A stretch of 46,542 bases of DNA from a virus: IMG/VR virus record IMGVR_UViG_3300045988_082870, positions 1-46,542 of that record; one strand, written 5' to 3'. The position numbers and the translations under genes are program-made. This document shows positions 1-46,542 of this stretch, piece by piece. The notes below the pieces were generated by a model that worked only from the letters and a program-made list of their open reading frames with translations, had not been told where the DNA came from and searched no databases. The number at the start of each line of letters is the position of its first letter. The first letter of the stretch is position 1.

Positions 1-55
1 AAATATCACATTTACGTTCTATCTTTGCCATATCAACATTTTTGAAAACAGATAA
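1..55. repeat. 55-bp terminal direct repeat, exact copy of 46488..46542 (circular-closure overlap or short terminal redundancy)
   Basis: Bases 1-55 (aaatatcacatttacgttctatctttgccatatcaacatttttgaaaacagataa) recur exactly at 46488-46542. The repeat includes the ATG and first codons (MAKIERKCDI) of the minus-strand gene 46249..46518. Confidence 0.95.
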
Positions 56-509
56 ACTTTAATTCATATATGCCATTATTTACAGATATAATATAAAAAT
101 TTATCATTTTATTTTCGTTCCCGACATCGTTTACCGAAAATGTAGGATAATCTCCTATTATGCCGCATATATCTACGCTGAAACACTCTATTATTCCATA
201 CTTAGTAAAATAGTTGCTTAAACTGTCATTTACTCTTTTCAATATTTCAATTCCATGTGGGCTAAACATCTTTTTTATTTCTTCCTTATTTGTTATAACC
301 CAACGCATAGGTATCTGCTTTAAAAGATTATTTATTCCTTTGCCTTTTTTTACTGTTTTACCGAAAAAACATTGACTTCGTAGAAAATACATAACCGGGT
401 GACCTTTGTATATAAATGAAAATATATTATTAGTATATAGTGTAACATCATATCCCCTTTCGGTTATTTGCTCTATTTCTTTCGATTTATATATTTTATT
501 TCTTTCCAT
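33..509 (-). CDS. Hypothetical protein (158 aa), part of the small-gene unit fed by promoter B
   Basis: Uninterrupted ORF, co-oriented, with an 11-nt gap to the upstream gene. Visibly more AT-rich than most of the genome. No motif recognised. Confidence 0.6.
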   Translation of the reverse strand: MERNKIYKSKEIEQITERGYDVTLYTNNIFSFIYKGHPVMYFLRSQCFFGKTVKKGKGINNLLKQIPMRWVITNKEEIKKMFSPHGIEILKRVNDSLSNYFTKYGIIECFSVDICGIIGDYPTFSVNDVGNENKMINFYIISVNNGIYELKFICFQKC

Positions 510-1220: not shown

Positions 1221-1260
1221 TTGTTTATGCCGAAGCTTGCGCCCCGGCTGGTTAATTATT
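1221..1260 (-). promoter_or_regulatory. Intergenic GNRA-tetraloop hairpin, copy 1 of a 4-member family
   Basis: The minus-strand RNA reads AAUUAACCA GCCGGGGC-GCAA-GCUUCGGC AUAAAC (hairpin 1229..1248). Two G-U pairs form only on the minus strand. No U-tract follows. Confidence 0.6.
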
Positions 1261-1467: not shown

Positions 1468-1487
1468 AATTTTATAATTTTACGTTT

Positions 1488-1503
1488 CCGGGCAACCGCC
1501 CGG
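1488..1503 (-). promoter_or_regulatory. Leader-type hairpin, copy A (no adjacent promoter)
   Basis: The minus strand reads GACCGGGCGGUUGCCCGGAAAC: a 5-bp CCGGG/CCCGG stem and a CGGUUG loop. The same motif occurs at 1785, 39380 and 46024. It lies between the stop at 1511 and the ATG at 1467. Confidence 0.55.
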
Positions 1504-1762: not shown

Positions 1763-1784
1763 TTTATTCTTTATTTTATGGTTT

Positions 1785-1854
1785 CCGGGTAACTGCCCGG
1801 TCAGCTTTTTTATTTATCTGCTGCAAAGTTAAAGAAATATTTTAAAAGCACAAA
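1785..1854 (-). promoter_or_regulatory. Early promoter B plus conserved leader hairpin
   Basis: On the minus strand: TTTG (1851..1854), a 19-nt spacer, then TAACTTTG (1824..1831). The leader hairpin GACCGGGCAGUUACCCGGAAAC follows at 1785..1800. This matches the Bacteroidota -33/-7 consensus and is nearly identical to cassettes C and D. Confidence 0.75.
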
Positions 1855-1993: not shown

Positions 1994-2031
1994 AAACGAA
2001 AACCGGGCATACGTTAGTAACGCATACCCGG
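1994..2031 (-). terminator. Rho-independent terminator after the lysis cassette
   Basis: Minus-strand RNA: CCGGGUAUGCG-UUACUAA-CGUAUGCCCGG, an 11-bp stem including two G-U pairs, followed by UUUUCGUUU. It lies about 50 nt below the spanin stop. Confidence 0.75.
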
Positions 2032-2079
2032 AAATTCTTAAATTATGACTACAGAAAAAAAGGTTTTGCAAATATATTA

Positions 2080-2592
2080 TTATTTTTTTAATTTTCTCAA
2101 TACAAACCAAAAAATAATTACTAATAATAGTACATAAAAACCATAAATCTGTGTCTGCTGAAACCATGATAGTTTCTTCTCTACTTCAACAGTTTTAGTT
2201 ATAACGGTATTCCCGGTTTTAATTAGTGTGCTATCTGTACTTATTATCGGCTTGTCAAATTCTATTGGCTTTTTTTGCGGTTTCAGCCGCAAATCGTGGT
2301 ATAAAGTGCCGTCAGAATTGATATGCGCTGTTGATATTGCATAATCATTTTCCAAATAACTTGTACTGTCGGCGGTTGTCCTTTCTGCCCTTTGTTCGGG
2401 TATATCTAGCCAACACGTATCTTTGACAAATTTCGTTTCTGTCTTGATAATCGTCTTAATGCTGTCATTCGTGATATACGTTGGTATATACTTAGTTTTA
2501 CACCCTAACAATAACGAACATACCACAAAGCCCCATATAATGTTTAATATTGTTCTCATAATTCTTATTCTTGCCAACGTTGACTTTCCCAT
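2080..2592 (-). CDS. Putative unimolecular spanin (lipoprotein signal plus C-terminal TM anchor)
   Basis: An N-terminal signal ends in the lipobox LLLGC. A C-terminal hydrophobic helix IYGFYVLLLVIIFWFVL is followed by RKLKK. The gene sits directly downstream of, and overlaps, the endolysin. An alternative start is Met12 at 2559. Confidence 0.6.
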   Translation of the reverse strand: MGKSTLARIRIMRTILNIIWGFVVCSLLLGCKTKYIPTYITNDSIKTIIKTETKFVKDTCWLDIPEQRAERTTADSTSYLENDYAISTAHINSDGTLYHDLRLKPQKKPIEFDKPIISTDSTLIKTGNTVITKTVEVEKKLSWFQQTQIYGFYVLLLVIIFWFVLRKLKK

Positions 2593-2999: not shown

Positions 3000-3726
3000 A
3001 ATATTCCCATTTAAAAAAGTTCTTTGTTTTATTTCTTTTGCCTTGGCAGCACGCAAGAATGCCATGAACACTTGAGTTAGTATTTTCTGCCGCTTCTTTT
3101 ATTGACTTCCATATGTTTATCGTATTTCCATTCATATCTTTTTGAATTACACGCCTGCATCTTGCATGCGTTTTACTTTTCTTTTCTACACCTTTAAATT
3201 TCCACAAGTAACCTTTAACAGATCCGATTTTCCCATTACAGCATTTCGCAATTGACGATGGGCTTACTCCAATAACATTTCCTGCTATCTTTGTTGAATT
3301 GTAAACTTTTATTAAGCGACCGTCTAAATCATATTGCTCAACTGCCTTTTGTATCTTAAAGGCTAATCTTTCTCTTACATGGCTATATTCTATATTGTAA
3401 TTAGGTGTACACCATTCGAGATTTTCAGCATTATTGTCTGTTCTGATTTCGTTTTTATGATTTACATAAGGCAAATTATGTGGATTAGGAACAAATGCTT
3501 CGGCTACAAGACGATGAACTAAATATAATTTGTATGTGCTATTTTTACAAAGGTGTGCCATTTTATACCCTGTTGTTGATGATTTATGTATTTTTACAAC
3601 ACGTTCCGGTATAGTTCTATACCCACCTAAATGTGGTACTTTCCTTAATAAAGATTTTACCCTGCCCAAATTACTTACTTGATACAAGCCTTCATAGCCT
3701 TTAATGTCTTTCCAAATCTCTTTCAT
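2971..3726 (-). CDS. Free-standing NUMOD4-HNH homing endonuclease with C-terminal HTH (IENR1/NUMOD1-like) repeats
   Basis: N-terminal WKDIKGYEGLYQVSNLGRVKS (NUMOD4). HNH core HRLVAEAF...VNHKNEIRTDNNAENLEW. Two C-terminal helix-turn-helix-like repeats (IAGNVIGVSPSSIAKCCNGK and AAENTNSSVHGILACCQGK). AT-rich, inserted between holin and endolysin. Confidence 0.85.
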   Translation of the reverse strand: MKEIWKDIKGYEGLYQVSNLGRVKSLLRKVPHLGGYRTIPERVVKIHKSSTTGYKMAHLCKNSTYKLYLVHRLVAEAFVPNPHNLPYVNHKNEIRTDNNAENLEWCTPNYNIEYSHVRERLAFKIQKAVEQYDLDGRLIKVYNSTKIAGNVIGVSPSSIAKCCNGKIGSVKGYLWKFKGVEKKSKTHARCRRVIQKDMNGNTINIWKSIKEAAENTNSSVHGILACCQGKRNKTKNFFKWEYYDKLPITTI

Positions 3727-4383: not shown

Positions 4384-4911
4384 TTAAATAAAATCATCCC
4401 AAGGTACGGCTTTTTTGCTCCCCAGCACATCGGCAAACCACCTGTTGAAGATTTTTCCGGGATAGCCGTCCGGGTCTGCCGCATCGGCATAAGCCTGTCT
4501 GACGCAATCGGTTTCAGTTTTTAGGCTTACGCCGTAATAGTCCGCATAGTGCATATTAGCCGCATAAGCTATATCGCCCCATGTTATTTCTTCCGGCTTC
4601 GTCAGACCGAAACGCTCAAAGGCTGACTTAACATCGGCAATGCTCCAATGGTGGTTTGCTTCTCCGTGGGCGTTTTGCATCTGCTTGCTTGCCCAGCTTG
4701 CTAAATCGTCAGTGAAATGGCTGCCGTGTTTCTCTTTATACTTTATTAAGCCCTGCATGGCTTCTTCTGAAAATTCATCGTTAAAGCCATTTGAATGCTC
4801 ATGACTATCTTCGTGTTTCTTGCTGTATGTATCTTTTCGGCCGTGTTCTTCTTCCGAAACATGGCCATATATTTTGTATGTTCTCATGGCTCTAACTCTT
4901 AAATTCTGCAA
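4384..4911 (-). CDS. Hypothetical protein (His/Glu-rich N-terminus)
   Basis: ORF track. A more likely start is Met9 at 4887 (MRTYKIYGH), which removes the overlap with the upstream gene. No motif recognised. Confidence 0.6.
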   Translation of the reverse strand: MQNLRVRAMRTYKIYGHVSEEEHGRKDTYSKKHEDSHEHSNGFNDEFSEEAMQGLIKYKEKHGSHFTDDLASWASKQMQNAHGEANHHWSIADVKSAFERFGLTKPEEITWGDIAYAANMHYADYYGVSLKTETDCVRQAYADAADPDGYPGKIFNRWFADVLGSKKAVPWDDFI

Positions 4912-29275: not shown

Positions 29276-30746
29276 TCTTTTTAAATTGTTCCCTAATTTT
29301 GCTTTGCTCTCCCTTGAAAAACACTAAAACGTTTTTATTTACCGAAACGACCTTGCGGCTGTCAATGGCTCTGTTTATTTGGAAATTATGCTCACCTTTG
29401 AAAAACACTAAAACGTTTTGGTGATTTTTGGCTATCTTGCGCATTTCCATATACTTCCCGGCTCGCAGTGCTGTGCTCGCTCCGCTTTCTATTAAGATAA
29501 GTTCGTTATAAAGCCCTGCGCCGTGTTTCTTGAAAATACGCTTTATATCGCCTACGAAATCGTAGTAAAAGCCGGTTTTCTTGTTTCTTACATCGCCTAC
29601 TACAACAACTGCAAATCTATTTTCACGTAAACATTTCAATGCGCCGGCAAAACCGTTTTCCAAAATATTCAAAAATGCTTCGTAGGTTGCGGCGTTGCTT
29701 GCGTCATTAGGTAAATCGCTGTAATGTTCCAAATCGAAATATGGTGGGCAACTCATAACCAAATCCACGCTATTTTCTTCGAAATGGTTTGCTACGTTCT
29801 GCCCATCGTCAAGAATATAATTTACTCGTAAGTTAGGAAAACGCTGTAATATCTTGTTGTTCTCCTGTACCTGTTCCGGGCGTATTTCTATACCTGTAAA
29901 ATCGTTTCCTAAATATCCGAAAACTAAGCCTTTGTAAACATCGCCGGCGAAAGGGTCTATTATCTTACATCCGGGATAACCAAACCAACGTACTATTATT
30001 TCGGATAATACAGGGTCAAATATACTCGTTCCGCTGCCCAATGCCTGCGCTTCGACTTTTCGTTTTTCTTCTTCTGAAACAAATCGCTCTAAATATTCGG
30101 CAAAGGATATTCCAAGCTCTTTGCGTCTTAATTTGCTGCGCTCGTAAATCGTCTTATACTTTAATTCCGGGCTTTTCATGTTAGTGTCTTGGCGGCTCTC
30201 TCCATTCGCTCCAATAATCGCTTTCCATTGCTTTTTGCGCTGCTGCCAATATCCTTGCCGTGTGTCTAATATACTAAACGGCGGTATAACGAATTTATCC
30301 AATAGCGAAACATGGTTACTTGCCGTTTTCTTGACCTTTTGTTCTTCGAGCTTGGTTAAGCCCCAATCAACCAAATTCATACTGTCGAACTTATCCTCAA
30401 GTATGTCGAAATCCCAATCTCCGCCGAGGGCGTTTGCCGTGATGTTTGCCTTTTCTCGCTGTTTTTCATCCCAGCGCACCTGTCGGTAATTTAATTTTTG
30501 GCCGTCAAATATGACATATCCCCATGCAACTGTGCCCTGCTTATTCGGTGTGTCGTATTTTTCTACGATGTCGATTTGGCACTTGTTTATGTCAATAACC
30601 CTGCTTCGCTGGTTGCCGGAAATAATTTCATCGCTATTTAAATCGTGTACTATTCCCGACAAGTCGCCAAGTTCTTCAATGTTAGCTTTTAATTTAGCTA
30701 ATTGTTTTTCGCTTATTTTTCGTGGATTTTTATTGTACTGCTTCAT
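29229..30746 (-). CDS. ParB-like nuclease domain fused to an N6-adenine/N4-cytosine DNA methyltransferase
   Basis: The N-terminus (KLKANIEELGDLSGIVHDLNSDEIISGNQR) is ParB/Srx-like. The SAM motif I is IIDPFAGD and the catalytic motif IV is SCPPY. The C-terminal motif NVLVFFKGE occurs twice. Confidence 0.8.
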   Translation of the reverse strand: MKQYNKNPRKISEKQLAKLKANIEELGDLSGIVHDLNSDEIISGNQRSRVIDINKCQIDIVEKYDTPNKQGTVAWGYVIFDGQKLNYRQVRWDEKQREKANITANALGGDWDFDILEDKFDSMNLVDWGLTKLEEQKVKKTASNHVSLLDKFVIPPFSILDTRQGYWQQRKKQWKAIIGANGESRQDTNMKSPELKYKTIYERSKLRRKELGISFAEYLERFVSEEEKRKVEAQALGSGTSIFDPVLSEIIVRWFGYPGCKIIDPFAGDVYKGLVFGYLGNDFTGIEIRPEQVQENNKILQRFPNLRVNYILDDGQNVANHFEENSVDLVMSCPPYFDLEHYSDLPNDASNAATYEAFLNILENGFAGALKCLRENRFAVVVVGDVRNKKTGFYYDFVGDIKRIFKKHGAGLYNELILIESGASTALRAGKYMEMRKIAKNHQNVLVFFKGEHNFQINRAIDSRKVVSVNKNVLVFFKGEQSKIREQFKKIEYDSQDIELFGLDK

Positions 30747-30771
30747 GTTACTGCTATTTTTTCGCTAAATG

Positions 30772-37270: not shown

Positions 37271-37707
37271 ATCGTAGCAGGGTCGTCAATTATTACATAA
37301 CAATTTTCAGCCATGAGCTGTTTTATTGTTTCAATATGTTCTATAAGTTCGGAATTGTCCAAGTCTTTAACTTCTCGCAAGACGCTCATATATTGGCCGC
37401 TGTCCGGGTCTGCCGTCTGCAAGTGCATTATGGGCGACATCTCACGCAGCCACCGCTCTGTCTGCTCGTCCGTCTTTCTGTCGCCGCTCTCCCACAAAGC
37501 ATGCCTGCACCTCGGTACAACATAATTGAAATAATAGCCTTTCAATGCTTCTGATGTCTTTGGAGCATACACCCGGAATGTAGCTATTATCCGGGTGTTT
37601 GGCCAATTCTTGCAAAAGTCTTTCAGTTCTTCCATATACATCGAGAGCCGGCCGTCATTCGTTATACGGCCGCAAATCTCAATCGTGTGCTTCTTCATAC
37701 TTTTCAA
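37267..37707 (-). CDS. Hypothetical protein (146 aa)
   Basis: ORF track. It overlaps the ATPase 3' end by 29 nt. Confidence 0.55.
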   Translation of the reverse strand: MKSMKKHTIEICGRITNDGRLSMYMEELKDFCKNWPNTRIIATFRVYAPKTSEALKGYYFNYVVPRCRHALWESGDRKTDEQTERWLREMSPIMHLQTADPDSGQYMSVLREVKDLDNSELIEHIETIKQLMAENCYVIIDDPATI

Positions 37708-39121
37708 CTCTTAATTCATCCTGCTCTCTTACTACTTGCTCAACAAACCCCTGGAAACCGTTATCTTTTGCGAATTTTACAAGGGCTTCGAGCTTCTTCT
37801 TTCCCAAACTTTCGCCCCGGGCGATGCGGAAAACCTTAACTTTGGGGTTTTTGGCAATTATAAGTTTCGCCGCAACTTCCATTATTTGGCTATCGCTTAC
37901 CCTGCCGGCAACAAATGGTATGCCGTTAAGCTCCAAGCCATCCTCGGTAAATGTAAGGCCGTTTATTGGTATCTCCGATTTGTTGATATAATTCTCTCGC
38001 TTGTCGGCAAGCTCTTTCAGCTTCTTCTCGTGTCCTGCGACCTTGGCCGCTGCTGCGTTCTTGTCGTTCTCGGCCTTAGCGTAGTCGGCAACCTTTCGGT
38101 GCATCTCGTTGTGGTGCTTGGCGTTTGCGATAAGTTCTGTTACATCCTGCGGCTTGTTGTTCTCATAGTCCTGTAACCACTTATTGCAGTTATTTCGCCG
38201 GTTTATTGCATCGGCTTCTTTCGCCTTAACATCGTCTATTAGTGCCCTGTAATCGGCTATTGTCTTAGCCTTTTCGTTGTCAATATTATTTATCTTTTCA
38301 TTGTATTTGTTTGTTAGCTCCTCAATAGCCCTGTCAAGCTCTGATTTGGCGTTTGCCTTTTCTTGCTCTGCGGTTAATTCTGCGTCTTTTATTTGCTGCT
38401 GATAGTCCTCGATTAATGCCGGCGTGTCGGCAATGGTCTTTTCACGTTCTTCAAGTAACTGCCTTACTGATTTAGCTTTCTCGTCTAACTTCACGGCCTG
38501 CGCCTGCTGTTGCATTAATGCTTCCATGTCTATTTCTTCGGCATATTCTTTTATATCGGCCGGCGTCACTTCCTGTTGTATCTTTGCAAATACGCCGGTG
38601 TACATCTTTAATTCGGCGTTATCCGTCTTGCGCTGTTCCTTGATTTGCGATACCTGTGCGTCTATATCGGCAATGGCCTTTTGCGTTTCCTCGCTTAGTA
38701 AAGATTTTACGATTTGCACCTGTTTGCGTCTGCCCTCGGCCGTTTCGCTCCACGCCACAAACTCGTTAGCGTCAAAGTCTTGATAGCCGAAAATATCCTG
38801 TAACGCTGTTATTCGGTCAGACCTCAGCCCGGTGTCCTTGCTGGTTATTGTTATCGTGCCCCGGGGATTTGCCTTTGTCATAGATAACTTCACTTCATAT
38901 TCTTTGCCGTCATCTCCAACAATTATCTTTGCATATCCTTTGTCCTCGCCGTTTCGTAACACTTCGTCACGGCTGCCGGTTAGCAAAACCATTATTGACT
39001 TTAGCAGGGTGCTTTTGCCAAGCTCGTTTTCGCCGGTAACCAAATAAACGTTGCCGTCAAAATCACTCGTAAATTCCTTAATTGCTTGGAAATTCTTTAA
39101 TTCAATTCTTTTAATATACAT
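37679..39121 (-). CDS. SMC/Rad50/RecF-like ABC ATPase with a long coiled-coil insert
   Basis: The N-terminus is IKRIELKNFQAI...VYLVTGENELGKSTLL (Walker A). A coiled coil of about 250 aa follows. The C-terminal part has a signature-like RVSDSQ and a Walker B-like GFQGFVEQV. Confidence 0.75.
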   Translation of the reverse strand: MYIKRIELKNFQAIKEFTSDFDGNVYLVTGENELGKSTLLKSIMVLLTGSRDEVLRNGEDKGYAKIIVGDDGKEYEVKLSMTKANPRGTITITSKDTGLRSDRITALQDIFGYQDFDANEFVAWSETAEGRRKQVQIVKSLLSEETQKAIADIDAQVSQIKEQRKTDNAELKMYTGVFAKIQQEVTPADIKEYAEEIDMEALMQQQAQAVKLDEKAKSVRQLLEEREKTIADTPALIEDYQQQIKDAELTAEQEKANAKSELDRAIEELTNKYNEKINNIDNEKAKTIADYRALIDDVKAKEADAINRRNNCNKWLQDYENNKPQDVTELIANAKHHNEMHRKVADYAKAENDKNAAAAKVAGHEKKLKELADKRENYINKSEIPINGLTFTEDGLELNGIPFVAGRVSDSQIMEVAAKLIIAKNPKVKVFRIARGESLGKKKLEALVKFAKDNGFQGFVEQVVREQDELRVEKYEEAHD

Positions 39122-39128
39122 ATCTCTC

Positions 39129-39166
39129 GGTTTTATGCCGGGGTTGCCCCCGGCTGGTTATTTATT
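39129..39166 (-). promoter_or_regulatory. Intergenic GNRA-tetraloop hairpin, copy 2
   Basis: The minus-strand RNA reads AAUAACCA GCCGGGG-GCAA-CCCCGGC AUAAAACC (hairpin 39137..39154). It lies between the stop at 39170 and the ATG at 39121. Confidence 0.6.
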
Positions 39167-39169
39167 ATC

Positions 39170-39358
39170 TTAATAATTTTCAAAAATATCCATTGCAGTA
39201 CAAAGACTTGGCATTTCTTCTTCTTGAATTATTTTTCCACGTTTTTCCTCTACAAAAAACATTCCTTGGTTTATGCCGGTTTCGTCATATCTTTCTTCAA
39301 TCCTAATATTTGTGTTGTTTTTTGAAATTTTACATGCTACAATTTTTATACGTTTCAT
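39170..39358 (-). CDS. Hypothetical protein (62 aa), first gene after early promoter C
   Basis: ORF track; AT-rich; bracketed by the leader hairpin and the GNRA hairpin. Confidence 0.5.
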   Translation of the reverse strand: MKRIKIVACKISKNNTNIRIEERYDETGINQGMFFVEEKRGKIIQEEEMPSLCTAMDIFENY

Positions 39359-39379
39359 ATTTCTTATTTTTAACAGTTT

Positions 39380-39452
39380 CCGGGTAACCGCCCGGTCGGC
39401 TTTTATTTCTTATTTCTGATGCAAAGATAAAGAAAAATTTTAAATACACAAA
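39380..39452 (-). promoter_or_regulatory. Early promoter C plus conserved leader hairpin
   Basis: On the minus strand: TTTG (39449..39452), a 19-nt spacer, then TATCTTTG (39422..39429). The leader hairpin GACCGGGCGGUUACCCGGAAAC follows at 39380..39395. Confidence 0.75.
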
Positions 39453-42925: not shown

Positions 42926-43642
42926 TTATTTTTTTGTCGTCAGCATTTTAATTGGCTGCTTCGCTTCATTTATCTTGTTAATATTAGCTTCGCTCTCATT
43001 TGGAATGATACTTACAACCGGGTATCGGCTTTTATCTCCGGGCTTTTGGCTCTTGGCAAATTGTACGTTAAGGTCAAATATAATTCCTTTGACAAATCCG
43101 TTACTTTCCAAAATTGCATCAAATGTATCTCTTATGTTGGGTATGGTGCTTGCTGTGCCTTTTGTGGCAAACTGCCAAACGCCGGCCACGCCCCGGACGC
43201 AAGGTATAATGAAGTTTAGCGTTAAAATGATATTCCAGCCCTCGCCTGTGCGCTGGTATTGGCTGTTAGGGTAACGGCGTTCAATGTCTTTCATTAAATT
43301 AGGGTAATCACTAATTTTCAGCTCTTGGTACTCCTTACCGTTCCAACACTTGTAAGTTTCGCCATCACCTGTTGCCAACAAACGCCCCTCATTATCCCGG
43401 TACTCGTAACGTTCGCAACATACTTGCTCTGCGCTGTCTGACGGAAATACTATTTGTATCGTCTGCGGCTTCTCGCCATAAGCCGCCGTAAACAGTGCAG
43501 CGTACTTGCCTGTCGGTATGAAGTAATCTACGCTACGAGGATAGCCTTTTGCGTCCTTATATCCTATCTTTATGTTACCGACCCGGGGCAAAACCAAATG
43601 GTTTCGCTCCGCTGCCGGTCTATTTATTATTCTGCCTTTCAT
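42926..43642 (-). CDS. Hypothetical protein in the position of a single-strand annealing partner of the exonuclease
   Basis: 238 aa. Its ATG overlaps the exonuclease stop (ATGA). No ATPase motif and no family recognised; the function is inferred from gene order only. Confidence 0.4.
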   Translation of the reverse strand: MKGRIINRPAAERNHLVLPRVGNIKIGYKDAKGYPRSVDYFIPTGKYAALFTAAYGEKPQTIQIVFPSDSAEQVCCERYEYRDNEGRLLATGDGETYKCWNGKEYQELKISDYPNLMKDIERRYPNSQYQRTGEGWNIILTLNFIIPCVRGVAGVWQFATKGTASTIPNIRDTFDAILESNGFVKGIIFDLNVQFAKSQKPGDKSRYPVVSIIPNESEANINKINEAKQPIKMLTTKK

Positions 43643-45225
43643 AAATCTAAATCATTATCAAGTAATGCACTTACGTTATTTTTCGCCTTTTTGGCCGTTT
43701 CTTTTGCCTTGGTGGCTTTTTCGACCTTTTTCGGTTCAGTTGTCCGCTCCTTTGCTTTCGGCTCGTCAGACGGCTTCATTTTGCTGTCTTTTCGTGCATA
43801 CATACGAGGAACGCCTTTTTGCGCTTCTGATGTCCTTTGGTTTCTTGTGCCATAATTAATGTTATCCCGATGTGTTATATATTCCAAGTTGGAAATAGCA
43901 TTATTTGCCTTGTTTTCGTCTTTGTGATTTATCTCCATATTTTCGGGCGGCACGCCTAAAAATGCCAAAGCAACAAGGACGTGAACACGCTTTGTAACTC
44001 CGCTTACACAAACGTGATAATATCCTGTTTTTTCTAATTGTGGCTTCAATATATAAGGCTTTTCCCTTGTATGTCCGTACTCATCAATCAAGCTCCTTAT
44101 TTCTCCATTCTCGCTGGCTTGATACTTACCATCATACCCAGGTATATCTTTCCAAATGCAATCGGTCGTATCGTCTTGCATTTTCTTCTCCATATTCCGC
44201 CTTTTTACAAGCTCCGAAAGACTTATTACGCAAATGTTATTTTCTGCGTGATAATCGTCAAAATTTATAACTCCCGAACAAGATATAACAGTATTATCTC
44301 TTTTCGCATCCTCTATTTGAGCAAGTTCGATTAAATAAGGTAATTTAGCCGCATTCTTGCTATTGGTTTGGTCTTTGAAATTATACGTGGGTGTATCTCC
44401 ATTCCATAATTTTGGACTCCAATTAAATACACGCTCAACAGGGTATTGCTCAAAATTCATGTTCCACATTTTCATGTATGCATGGAGTTGTATTTCGTGT
44501 TCCTCGAAAAAGCCTTTGCGTCCCGATTTGAAGTCGATTATTGCTCTTATTCGGCGTTGCCGCTTGCTTTCCTTTGGTTGCCCTGCCTTTACGCCTGTTT
44601 TATAAACATCACCGAAAAAGCCCTTTTCCTCAACGGTTATTTCGGCTACGAGGTCGATTGCCCCTGCATATCCATCTTCGGGGTTTGTCAACACCAACTC
44701 GATTGCTAACGGCTTTAAATCTACATCGTGTGCAAATTGTGCAAATGCCAATATATCTCTTTTTATATCGTCAGAATAATCTATAAAATCAATGGGCAAT
44801 TTCTCGCTCTCAATATATGATTTCAATTTATCTCTTATCTCATTTAGGTCAAAAGTTCGTTCTATTAAATACCTTGCTATCTGTGAATGCAAGAACGTTC
44901 CATACGCCGCACGCTCGGCTGCGTAACGTCTGCTTTCGTCATACCCCATATCTGCTATCCATTTAACAAGCTGCGGCGATGTCGGCAGTGTCTGTTTAAT
45001 CAGCGTTGTAACGCTTACATAGAATTGCGGCTCTCCATTTTCGTCAAATGTGTAATAATAGCGGTGGCCGCTGCTGTCTAATCTGTAAACCGGCTCGGGC
45101 TGCTCCTGTAATGCGTCAGCGTCAAAAAATTCTGCCTTAATTTCTTCGGATGTCATGCCCGGTGCAATTTCAAATGCCGGCTTCGTTGTTAATTCTTCCT
45201 GTGTGATTTGTTCTTGATTTTCCAT
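43639..45225 (-). CDS. PD-(D/E)XK (RecB/Cas4/YqaJ-type) exonuclease fused in frame to a NUMOD4-HNH endonuclease module and a basic tail
   Basis: The nuclease core motifs are GTFLHSQI, AGAIDLVAEI, IIDFKSG and QLHAY. Residues 356-462 are IWKDIPGYDGKYQASENGEIRS...HVLVALAF...INHKDENKANNAISNLEY. A Lys-rich tail ends LLDNDLDL. Confidence 0.75.
   Translation of the reverse strand: MENQEQITQEELTTKPAFEIAPGMTSEEIKAEFFDADALQEQPEPVYRLDSSGHRYYYTFDENGEPQFYVSVTTLIKQTLPTSPQLVKWIADMGYDESRRYAAERAAYGTFLHSQIARYLIERTFDLNEIRDKLKSYIESEKLPIDFIDYSDDIKRDILAFAQFAHDVDLKPLAIELVLTNPEDGYAGAIDLVAEITVEEKGFFGDVYKTGVKAGQPKESKRQRRIRAIIDFKSGRKGFFEEHEIQLHAYMKMWNMNFEQYPVERVFNWSPKLWNGDTPTYNFKDQTNSKNAAKLPYLIELAQIEDAKRDNTVISCSGVINFDDYHAENNICVISLSELVKRRNMEKKMQDDTTDCIWKDIPGYDGKYQASENGEIRSLIDEYGHTREKPYILKPQLEKTGYYHVCVSGVTKRVHVLVALAFLGVPPENMEINHKDENKANNAISNLEYITHRDNINYGTRNQRTSEAQKGVPRMYARKDSKMKPSDEPKAKERTTEPKKVEKATKAKETAKKAKNNVSALLDNDLDL
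43840..44160 (-). mobile_element. NUMOD4-HNH homing-endonuclease-like module embedded in the exonuclease ORF
   Basis: It is a paralogue of the free-standing HNH gene 2971..3726, with the same NUMOD4 and HNH_3-type motifs in the same order. This segment is locally more AT-rich than the nuclease-domain part of the ORF. Confidence 0.7.
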
Positions 45226-45237
45226 AATTCTCTCGGT

Positions 45238-45396
45238 TTATTTGTGGTTAAAAAATGGTTTTACGGTCAAACAGGGTATTGCGATAAACGCTAAACCCGG
45301 GTTTGCGATACTGTTAATTAGTAATATAATGCCAAAGGCTCTCATAACGGCTGCAAAGCCCTTTTCGCTGCCTAATAATTGTGATATTCTTTTCAT
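45238..45396 (-). CDS. Small hydrophobic protein (52 aa), below the ORF-track cutoff
   Basis: ATG at 45396, directly after the stop of the HTH gene; TAA at 45238-45240. Translation: MKRISQLLGSEKGFAAVMRAFGIILLINSIANPGLAFIAIPCLTVKPFFNHK. Confidence 0.45.
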   Translation of the reverse strand: MKRISQLLGSEKGFAAVMRAFGIILLINSIANPGLAFIAIPCLTVKPFFNHK

Positions 45397-45639: not shown

Positions 45640-45680
45640 TGTTTTATGCCAGGGCTTGCGCCCCGGCTGGTTATTATTTA
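45640..45680 (-). promoter_or_regulatory. Intergenic GNRA-tetraloop hairpin, copy 3
   Basis: The minus-strand RNA reads AAUAACCA GCCGGGGC-GCAA-GCCCUGGC AUAAAACAA (hairpin 45648..45667). One G-U pair forms only on the minus strand. Confidence 0.6.
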
Positions 45681-46003: not shown

Positions 46004-46023
46004 ATTTATTATTTTTTATGTTC

Positions 46024-46095
46024 CCGGGTAACCGCCCGGTCGGCTGTTGTTCTTAATTATGCTGCAAAGATAAAAAATATTTTTTAAAGCACAAA
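46024..46095 (-). promoter_or_regulatory. Early promoter D plus conserved leader hairpin
   Basis: On the minus strand: TTTG (46092..46095), a 19-nt spacer, then TATCTTTG (46065..46072). The leader hairpin GACCGGGCGGUUACCCGGGAAC follows at 46024..46039. Confidence 0.75.
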
Positions 46096-46117
46096 ATTTT
46101 ACTTTAAATAATTTGAT

Positions 46118-46166
46118 ATAAAATAAAAATGCCATGCACCCGAAATAGCGTGTAACGGTGCATGGC
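46118..46166 (-). terminator. Strong rho-independent terminator
   Basis: The minus-strand RNA forms a perfect 10-bp stem GCCAUGCACC-(16 nt)-GGUGCAUGGC followed by AUUUUUAUUUUAU. Confidence 0.8.
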
Positions 46167-46201
46167 TGCGCAGTAACCGAGAGTGTTTGGTTTATTGCGC
46201 T
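46120..46201 (-). ncRNA. Candidate ~80-nt phage sRNA (own promoter, two hairpins, own terminator)
   Basis: The transcript predicted from the promoter at 46203..46233 begins at GCGCAAUAAACC... A first hairpin spans 46168..46200 and the terminator hairpin follows. There is no ORF. Confidence 0.45.
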
Positions 46202-46202
46202 A

Positions 46203-46233
46203 CAAAGGTACTTATTTTCTTGTAAATACCAAA
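46203..46233 (-). promoter_or_regulatory. Consensus promoter driving the candidate sRNA
   Basis: On the minus strand: TTTG (46230..46233), a 19-nt spacer, then TACCTTTG (46203..46210). It lies 16 nt below the stop of 46249..46518. Confidence 0.55.
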
Positions 46234-46248: not shown

Positions 46249-46518
46249 TTAATCATGTATGCCCAAATCCATATCGCCCCATTGGTCGAAATCTGCTGTG
46301 TCATAGTCGCCAAAACTCTGCGGCGGATACTCAATCCAATTTTCCCGGCGAATATTGTTTAATGCAACCCGGCGAGGGTCATATCCGGGTTTGCTGCGTT
46401 CTCTTTTTTTTGCCGCACAACTCTTTGAACAACACTTGCCCCATCCTCTTTTCAAATCTCTTGTGTCGGCCATATATATTCGGCCACAAATATCACATTT
46501 ACGTTCTATCTTTGCCAT
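46249..46518 (-). CDS. Small zinc-ribbon (FCS-like) protein, last gene of the promoter-B unit across the circular junction
   Basis: 89 aa with CDICG...GKCCSKSC. Its first 31 nt also appear at window positions 1-31 because of the terminal repeat. Confidence 0.6.
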   Translation of the reverse strand: MAKIERKCDICGRIYMADTRDLKRGWGKCCSKSCAAKKRERSKPGYDPRRVALNNIRRENWIEYPPQSFGDYDTADFDQWGDMDLGIHD

Positions 46519-46542
46519 ATCAACATTTTTGAAAACAGATAA
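46488..46542. repeat. Second copy of the 55-bp terminal repeat
   Basis: Identical to 1..55. Confidence 0.95.

Follow-up and report, generated by a model that had tools for sequence, protein, structure and literature searches.

A conserved family of predicted small RNA genes in Bacteroidota phages with complementarity to early-gene translation initiation regions

The window analysed here, namely the whole 46,542-nt stretch of IMG/VR virus record IMGVR_UViG_3300045988_082870, is a complete, circularly permuted phage genome with a 55-bp direct repeat at its termini, and its minus strand carries essentially all long open reading frames (ORFs). The Bacteroidota-type promoter pattern TTTG-N17-21-TAnnTTTG occurs 11 times in it against 2.6 expected (none of 100 shuffles reached 11), and nine of the 11 matches lie on the coding strand. 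Between the last and first operons, adjoining the replication/recombination module, lies a short intergenic unit equipped with a promoter and an intrinsic terminator; the operon downstream of it has its own promoter. The features of the region are as follows:

46251..46249, minus strand: stop codon of the 89-aa gene upstream of the unit
46203..46233, minus strand: promoter of the small RNA (sRNA), sigma-A Bacteroidota type, a perfect TTTG-N19-TACCTTTG
46233..46230, minus strand: -33 element TTTG of this promoter, followed by the 19-nt spacer
46210..46203, minus strand: -7 box TACCTTTG of this promoter
46200..46168, minus strand: hairpin 1, GCGCAAUAAACC / AAACACUCUC / GGUUACUGCGC
46169..46183, minus strand: invariant family core CUCUCGGUUACUGCG
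46183..46175, minus strand: proposed seed CUCUCGGUU, the 3' half of the loop plus the first 4 nt of the 3' arm
46118..46166, minus strand: intrinsic terminator, hairpin 2 (perfect 10-bp stem GCCAUGCACC/GGUGCAUGGC) and U tract
46166..46157 and 46140..46131, minus strand: stem arms of hairpin 2, with a 16-nt loop between them
46130..46118, minus strand: U tract AUUUUUAUUUUAU, directly after hairpin 2
46118..46198, minus strand: predicted sRNA transcript of about 77-81 nt, with its 3' end in the U tract (46130..46118)
46095..46065, minus strand: early promoter D, beginning 22 nt past the U tract of the unit
42926..43642: gene for a Gp3-like protein (Pfam PF18897), 2.5 kb downstream of the unit

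The initial annotation of this region had described a perfect TTTG-N19 promoter on the minus strand at 46203..46233, a hairpin at 46168..46200 running into a perfect 10-bp stem with a U tract (46118..46166), and promoter D about 20 nt further downstream, and each of these elements was recovered at those positions. Two details needed revision. The promoter was rightly placed below the upstream gene, at a distance of 15 nt from the stop codon rather than 16 nt, and the anticipated size of about 80 nt stands, with a different predicted start: since the sigma-A box of Bacteroidota spans positions -12 to -5 (PMC9723704), G46198, the fifth nucleotide after the box, is a more likely start than 46200. 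Hairpin 1 is predicted to fold into an outer helix (GCGCA/UGCGC), an inner helix (AACC/GGUU) and the 10-nt loop AAACACUCUC, with one bulge or mismatch. The minimum free energy of the unit is -30.1 kcal/mol, compared with -15.4 +/- 2.5 kcal/mol for shuffled sequences (z = -5.8; none of 200 as good). Hairpin 2 was not picked up by a simple terminator scan because its 16-nt loop exceeds the limit of 8 set in that scan. That no ORF intervenes between promoter and terminator was likewise borne out. The only ORF touching the unit is a mechanical one of 39 aa (46016..46135), which starts within the 3' arm of the terminator stem and runs over promoter D and which we do not regard as a credible gene; no ATG occurs upstream of the terminator's 3' arm in the window unit or in the relatives checked.

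Comparison with known RNA families returned nothing of note: Rfam 15 gave no match at gathering score in the window, in Parabacteroides phage PDS1, in Elizabethkingia phage TCUEAP2 or in related locus L380, and only chance-level matches in the window and relatives at E-values up to 10, and ARAGORN found no tRNA or tmRNA in the window region. A search of cultured-phage DNA with the 943-bp region gave no match, nor did a search of IMG/VR with exact hairpin patterns. The 109-aa protein encoded downstream has no IMG/VR relatives; the 89-aa protein encoded upstream has relatives, but their downstream context differs. Exact-protein look-ups retrieved near-identical copies only (L043-L045), without informative variation, and the unit is identical in two of these, the independently assembled contigs L043 (ENA, 48.1 kb) and L044 (Logan). 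The core 15-mer, when compared with 185,579 species genomes, gave only chance matches in random taxa with no enrichment of Bacteroidota, and we infer that there is neither a host homologue nor a conserved host gene with an extended complement. A metagenome scan with the window-type 18-mer gave five chance matches and no further members of the window's lineage, and PD691P4-type phages gave no match in the stretch examined, which ends at the record end. An attP or tRNA-fragment reading of the unit was considered and rejected, given that there is no tRNA similarity and that the core is not enriched in Bacteroidota genomes.

Relatives of the unit were reached through the Gp3-like protein, for which IMG/VR holds 351 relatives at about 67% identity; 80 loci were fetched by means of this protein, so that the choice of sample did not depend on the RNA pattern. 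Short-word comparison of the fetched sequences returned a 15-nt exact match, CTCTCGGTTACTGCG, in the corresponding intergenic region and on the strand opposite the genes. On that strand, L047 carries the -7 box TAATTTTG, the hairpin CGCAUAACC...CUCUCGGUUACUGCG, and a GC-rich hairpin CCCCCGGCG...CGUCGGGGG followed by UUUCUCUUUU; judged from its sequence, this element is the same cassette as that of the window, inverted relative to the neighbouring genes. The 15-mer core is exact in 69 of the 80 protein-fetched loci and has one mismatch in two others. It is absent from eight, and in at least seven of these the sequence upstream of the protein match is shorter than 3 kb; the sole near-match in L049 differs at three positions, has no cassette around it and looks unrelated. 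A TAnnTTTG box stands at the equivalent distance from the conserved RNA in all 71 protein-fetched relatives with the locus, L099 being a single-base exception.

Taken over all searches, at least 182 related loci carry the cassette, in 85 distinct versions, although many of these loci are closely related and the number of independent lineages is perhaps 5-8. The architecture common to the 85 versions includes (i) a TAnnTTTG box, (ii) 3-4 variable nucleotides, (iii) a conserved A followed by CCGCAU(N)ACC, (iv) a loop ending in AUCGCUCUC, (v) GGUUACUGCG, (vi) a short linker, and (vii) a GC-rich hairpin with a T tract, the invariant core of the first hairpin being (AU)CGCUCUCGGUUACUGCG. A covariance model built from 30 members found all 73 loci tested, with scores of 47-94 bits, the window unit scoring 47.3 bits (E = 6e-10). 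Alignment demonstrates that conservation begins at the predicted +1 (ACCGCAU...), whereas the four preceding nucleotides after the box vary, and that the flanking intergenic DNA is much less conserved than the promoter and the 15-19-nt core.

The two hairpins, whose persistence in related genomes had been proposed as a check on the unit, are both retained, in different ways. Both helices of hairpin 1 are invariant in 66 distinct family members, so that covariation within the gut family neither supports nor contradicts them; the two-helix form is also predicted in PDS1, L055, TCUEAP2 and L139. At the position of the terminator, relatives carry at least eight unrelated GC-rich hairpins, all of which fold and all of which are followed by a T tract, and the terminator helices covary across the family. 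Folding of family members gave this two-hairpin shape throughout, at z values from -4.2 to -5.5. The sequence GUUAC recurs within the loops of otherwise unrelated terminator hairpins.

Six cultured phages, whose hosts belong to four genera and two bacterial classes, also carry the cassette without any annotation of it: the Parabacteroides phages PDS1 and PD491P1, the Bacteroides phages C1_85S2P and BKO1-3, the Alistipes phage AS73P1, and the Elizabethkingia phage TCUEAP2, in which an exact core (ATCGCTCTCGGTTACTGCG) is joined to an unrelated terminator (69 bits). In PDS1 (MN929097.1) the predicted RNA occupies about 4390-4475 of the minus strand, with its box at about 4480. A variant cassette with the box TATATTTG, the core CGCUCUCGGUAUAUCUGCG and a terminator of its own is carried by the marine Croceibacter phage P2559S. 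The P2559S core was found in four other IMG/VR contigs; three of them have variants of this type with their own terminators, and in the fourth (L381) the core was rejected as a chance match, lacking both box and terminator.

The orientation of the cassette differs among these phages. It lies opposite the gene strand in 69 protein-fetched loci and three cultured phages, and 94 further loci divide into 89 in which it is opposite the genes, none in which it is on the gene strand, and five that are ambiguous; it is on the gene strand only in the lineage of the window (L043 and L044 included) and in the marine P2559S group. The order of promoter, core and terminator is always kept and all three flip together, and, whichever way the cassette points, its RNA is complementary to the motif that precedes start codons. 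Flanking inverted repeats that would mark a site-specific inversion were not found, AT-rich chance pairs being all that was seen. In relatives, only the terminator tail reaches the end of the convergent gene. Inversion of the whole cassette with its internal order intact marks it as an autonomous RNA gene. A leader RNA, attenuator or put-like element is ruled out by the 69, 3 and 89 loci in which the cassette stands opposite the downstream operon. A cis-antisense RNA of the OOP/Sar type was also rejected, as the window unit is intergenic, lies on the gene strand and has no fully complementary target.

No other sequence in the window, on either strand, comes within three mismatches of the 19-nt core, and in the absence of a second near-copy there is no long antisense target. 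Short complements of 7-11 nt are found instead. The loop had been singled out in the initial annotation as a possible contact with 5' UTRs, and together with the 3' arm it does have a complementary motif at the initiation regions of early phage genes. The 9-mer AACCGAGAG, the complement of the seed CUCUCGGUU, occurs twice on the mRNA strand of the window against 0.18 expected, each time 2-4 nt before an ATG. The predicted sites and their genes are:

45230..45238, minus strand: predicted site 1, AACCGAGAG, ending 4 nt before the ATG at 45225
43639..45225, minus strand: gene of site 1, a 528-aa exonuclease/HNH protein
39124..39132, minus strand: predicted site 2, AACCGAGAG, ending 2 nt before the ATG at 39121
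37679..39121, minus strand: gene of site 2, a 480-aa SbcC/RecN-like ATPase
30747..30754, minus strand: possible weaker site, GCAGUAAC, directly before the ATG at 30746 of a ParB/methyltransferase gene

Among the 81 translation initiation regions of the window, site 2 ranks first by duplex energy (-17.9 kcal/mol) and site 1 second (-17.0 kcal/mol), both with z of about -3. The weaker site complements GUUACUGC in the 3' arm (-14.1 kcal/mol) and, at 8 nt, is near chance level. A whole-genome scan of duplex energies did not single out the sites, the results being dominated by GC-rich coding stretches, and was replaced by counts of contiguous complements and a ranking restricted to initiation regions.

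Complementarity at the same position recurs in relatives. The exonuclease site is kept in L043, and the ATPase initiation region contains a 7-10-nt complement of the sRNA core in all 34 tabulated sequences (33 besides the window); in TCUEAP2 the ATPase gene has a 9-nt complement, CGAGAGCGA. In P2559S, all six sense-strand copies of ACCGAGAG are located 2-5 nt before annotated ATGs, and the sole antisense copy is the sRNA gene itself. In PDS1 the complement is AGAGCGAUG and takes in the start codon; such sites precede gp_23 (RecN-like, ATG 10879), gp_39, gp_40 and an unannotated ORF at 3199. When initiation regions are defined as -20 to +5, those complementary to the sRNA of the same phage over 9 nt or more number two in the window, four in PDS1, one in TCUEAP2 and six in P2559S, and shuffled cores reached these counts in 6, 2, 99 and 0 of 2000 trials, respectively; the enrichment is marginal in TCUEAP2, where it rests on one site. 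K-mer counts made blind to the sRNA likewise demonstrate the positional bias, with CGAGAGC falling in initiation regions for eight of its nine sense occurrences in P2559S and TAGAGCG for four of four in PDS1. A site of at least 9 nt was found in only 30 of 71 partial loci, in which about 10 kb per locus was searched.

The loop of the window sRNA reads ACACUCUC compared with AUCGCUCUC in the family, and the window targets use the matching shifted register (AACCGAGAG vs AGAGCGAU). Over all loci, the loop flank (CAU/UAU/AAU) covaries only weakly with the ATPase site, and only this register shift in the window is clear. Upstream of start codons the motif is always in sense orientation at a distance of 2-6 nt from the ATG, in many cases past an intercistronic hairpin and far from promoters. 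The motif could also have a function of its own, for example as an operator bound by a protein or as a target of an RNase. Target pairing leaves the invariant ACUGCG and CGCA of the hairpin 1 stem unexplained; these stem nucleotides and the recurrent GUUAC may both point to a further partner.

We conclude that the unit of about 80 bases is very likely a real small RNA gene that has so far gone unannotated, and the proposal of a discrete, non-coding regulatory sRNA unit of this size is strongly supported by the 182 or more loci, the six cultured phages and the inverted cassettes; no transcript has been observed for any member. The window unit, where the family was first recognised, is a member of an sRNA family widespread in Bacteroidota siphoviruses, and it represents a new RNA family within a known kind, that of phage-encoded base-pairing sRNAs. 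From complementarity and position alone, and without expression data, the sRNA probably controls translation of several early genes of the phage. On balance we favour an autonomous sRNA gene of about 80 nt whose product acts in trans as an antisense RNA on early-gene initiation regions, a reading in which we have some confidence and in which transcription, pairing and the sign of the effect are all inferred.

Under this reading, host RNA polymerase with the primary sigma factor would start transcription about 5 nt past the TAnnTTTG box and stop at the intrinsic terminator. The RNA is predicted to fold so that its 5' hairpin displays (AU)CGCUCUC in the loop with GGUU opening the 3' arm, followed by the terminator hairpin. 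The exposed sequence would then pair in trans with a purine-rich motif located 2-6 nt upstream of, or overlapping, start codons (AACCGAGAG in the window, AGAGCGAU(G) or CGAGAGCGA in relatives), the genes concerned being an early DNA-metabolism set represented in the window by the exonuclease and the SbcC/RecN-like ATPase. Pairing over -12 to +3 would be expected to block 30S binding, which makes translational repression the most likely outcome, the direction again being inferred; such repression could fine-tune these genes within their polycistronic early mRNAs or turn them off later. The sRNA would in this way be the RNA counterpart of a multi-target translational repressor.

A broader claim is that a single sRNA family, extending from phages of human-gut Bacteroidales to those of marine Flavobacteriaceae, is a master post-transcriptional regulator of a phage regulon, read through a dedicated motif at the position of the Shine-Dalgarno sequence in a phylum that lacks Shine-Dalgarno use, Hfq and ProQ. 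If so, Bacteroidota would gain their first described phage sRNA, one equivalent in RNA form to T4 RegA, and this sRNA may also bind a protein through its invariant stem. We advance this only tentatively, as something that falls a little short of an even chance.

It remains conceivable, if unlikely, that the sRNA is real and that its main partners lie elsewhere, either among host mRNAs or among proteins of host or phage origin, such as an RNA-binding protein, a defence component or a nuclease, that it binds and sequesters. The 19-nt core, including ACUGCG, and the 5' arm sequence CGCA are invariant across phages of Bacteroides, Parabacteroides, Alistipes and Elizabethkingia, more than pairing at initiation regions calls upon, since that pairing uses only part of the core; the recurrence of GUUAC in unrelated terminator loops and the weak site enrichment in TCUEAP2 are also compatible with such a partner. 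Host mRNAs gain no support from the 15-mer scan of the 185,579 species genomes, which bears on extended complements only and not on short seeds, and neither kind of partner explains why, in four lineages, complements of the core cluster immediately upstream of phage start codons.

A function at the level of DNA, with the core serving as an operator for a phage regulator or as an origin-associated or packaging site, and with the promoter and terminator either incidental or driving transcription through it, appears improbable. Its position between the last and first operons beside the replication/recombination module would suit such a site, as would the recurrence of the motif near gene starts, in the manner of operators, and the ability of the cassette to work in either orientation, as many DNA sites do. 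The -7 box and terminator nevertheless invert together with the core in every lineage, conservation starts at the predicted +1, and terminator stems have been exchanged for unrelated sequences that remain terminators. Moreover, the motif copies at start codons have the sense orientation without exception, at 2-6 nt from the ATG and far from promoters, and the cassette copy is always their complement in its own direction of transcription, which RNA pairing needs and a DNA site does not. Finally, we consider it very improbable that the unit merely terminates or insulates an operon, its promoter being fortuitous, or that it serves the downstream early operon as a leader or attenuator (a put RNA or riboswitch-like element). 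In favour of such readings, its hairpin and U tract lie about 130 nt past the last gene of the upstream unit in the window, where they would stop read-through, and it sits just upstream of promoter D. Against them, the cassettes of about 160 relatives face away from the operon downstream and run counter to the one upstream, with the U tract on the wrong strand for the flanking genes; the promoter and 15-19-nt core outlast the flanking intergenic DNA in conservation; and a chance promoter would not persist in Elizabethkingia and Croceibacter phages. The promoter-terminator insulator offered as an alternative in the initial annotation is not supported as a primary function, as an insulator needs no invariant core of 15-19 nt.

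The favoured reading, a trans-acting antisense sRNA, has counterparts in the hosts and in other phages. Bacteroides encodes intergenic trans-acting sRNAs, for example GibS of B. thetaiotaomicron, with a sigma-A promoter, an intrinsic terminator and a seed that acts near start codons (PMC7366714). The phage sRNA resembles these in its TAnnTTTG-type promoter, Rho-independent terminator, size range (roughly 80-150 nt), lack of coding capacity, conserved single-stranded seed and predicted pairing near start codons in a phylum without Shine-Dalgarno use. It differs in that it is encoded by phages rather than by the chromosome, has no sequence or Rfam relationship to any described RNA, has a seed that is displayed by a hairpin loop and not by an unstructured 5' end, and has the phage's own genes as predicted targets.

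Among phage RNAs, lambda OOP RNA (77 nt) and P22 Sar RNA (68/69 nt) are small antisense RNAs (PMC12197685). They and the phage sRNA are alike in size, in having their own promoter and terminator, in being phage-encoded, and in pairing at or near the translation start of phage mRNA, which for the sRNA is a prediction. OOP and Sar are encoded opposite a single target to which they are fully complementary, whereas the sRNA described here is intergenic, has matches of 7-11 nt to several dispersed targets and, unlike them, is found in apparently lytic Bacteroidota phages. The C4 RNA of P1/P7 and the CI RNA of P4, which are processed from longer operon transcripts and serve lysogenic immunity, have loops that pair in trans with short leader or ribosome-binding sites of phage mRNA at more than one site. 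The sRNA differs from both in possessing its own promoter and terminator and in its predicted targets, which are DNA-metabolism genes. In T4, the RegA repressor and the RegB endoribonuclease are proteins that recognise a short motif common to many early-mRNA initiation regions and so control these mRNAs post-transcriptionally; this is a functional analogy only, as the recognising factor here would be an RNA.

In the literature searched, no sRNA has been described in Bacteroidota phages; a 2025 review of phage sRNAs has no entry from this phylum (PMC12197685), and the PDS1 paper contains no RNA analysis. The mode of action of sRNAs on mRNAs where Shine-Dalgarno sequences are not used, as in this phylum, has been called an open question (PMC7366714). 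Phages of Bacteroidota rank among the most abundant of the human gut and RNA-based regulation in them is uncharted, and the family provides a compact test case, consisting of an RNA of about 80 nt, an invariant seed of 9-19 nt and few predicted targets. Strand-specific RNA-seq of PDS1-infected P. distasonis already exists, in which host genes were analysed (PMC12118408), and PDS1 is one of the six cultured phage-host pairs that carry the family; RNAs shorter than 100 nt are under-represented in standard libraries. In the current annotations of these phages, hypothetical protein genes are placed across the RNA gene.

A conserved leader hairpin, (A)GCCGACCGGGCGGUUACCCGG(G/A)AAC, occurs at four positions on the minus strand of the window. 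At three of them it lies directly downstream of near-identical early-type promoters (46095, 39452, and 1854), and an analogous hairpin is found downstream of the early promoters of relatives. An intercistronic module, AAUAACCAGCCGGGG(C)GCAAGCCCUGGCAUAAA, in which a hairpin is followed by GGCAUAA, is present in three copies, one of them directly upstream of the ATPase target site, where the sRNA is predicted to pair. The same hairpin-GGCAUAA order precedes several initiation sites in relatives, and the module may serve as an element for processing or stability.

Sequence elements identified in the window.
46039..46020, 39395..39376, 1800..1781, and 1503..1484, minus strand: leader hairpin copies
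~45680..45644, ~39170..39133, and ~1260..1225, minus strand: intercistronic hairpin-GGCAUAA module
46156..46152 and 46177..46173: GUUAC copies
2076..2003, minus strand: possible second promoter-terminator mini-unit

The predicted sRNA of the window contains GUUAC twice, once within hairpin 1 on its 3' arm and once in the terminator loop (CCGUUACACGC). Two mutually unrelated versions of the terminator in relatives (GCGUUACUUC and CUGUUACGU) contain GUUAC as well. Its recurrence is unexplained; GUUAC may be a second recognition motif. In the possible mini-unit, TATATTTG directly follows the stop of gene 2080..2592, and ~37 nt further on there is a 13-bp stem, CCGGGUAUGCGUU-ACU-AACGUAUGCCCGG, followed by UUUUCG. 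This arrangement could encode a further small RNA, or could merely be an operon terminator combined with a chance box.

In public annotations, hypothetical protein coding sequences overlie the sRNA cassette, including gp_10 and gp_11 of Parabacteroides phage PDS1. The start annotated for gp_11 (4430) precedes both the early promoter and the leader, and is therefore probably mis-called. A small conserved ORF (MNKTK..., 71-97 aa), which is without annotation in PDS1, has a strong site, UUUAGAGCGAUG.

Public records and fetched loci concerned.
L366 / MN929097.1 (PDS1), ~4385..4500: cassette overlapped by annotated coding sequences
OR296437.1, OP172815.1, OK632025.1, and OP172640.1, equivalent places: cassette overlapped by annotated coding sequences
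L373 (PDS1) ATG 3199, L046 1678, and L056 1176: MNKTK... small ORF

A 55-bp terminal direct repeat (1..55 = 46488..46542) shows the genome assembly in the window to be complete and either circular or circularly permuted, such that, across the junction, gene 33..509 directly precedes the 89-aa gene (46249..46518). The Logan assembly SRR5091596 is broken within the leader of promoter D, between the end of L044 and the start of L045 (both near-identical to the window), which share a 25-nt overlap in repeated leader sequence; this is most likely a graph break due to the four leader copies.
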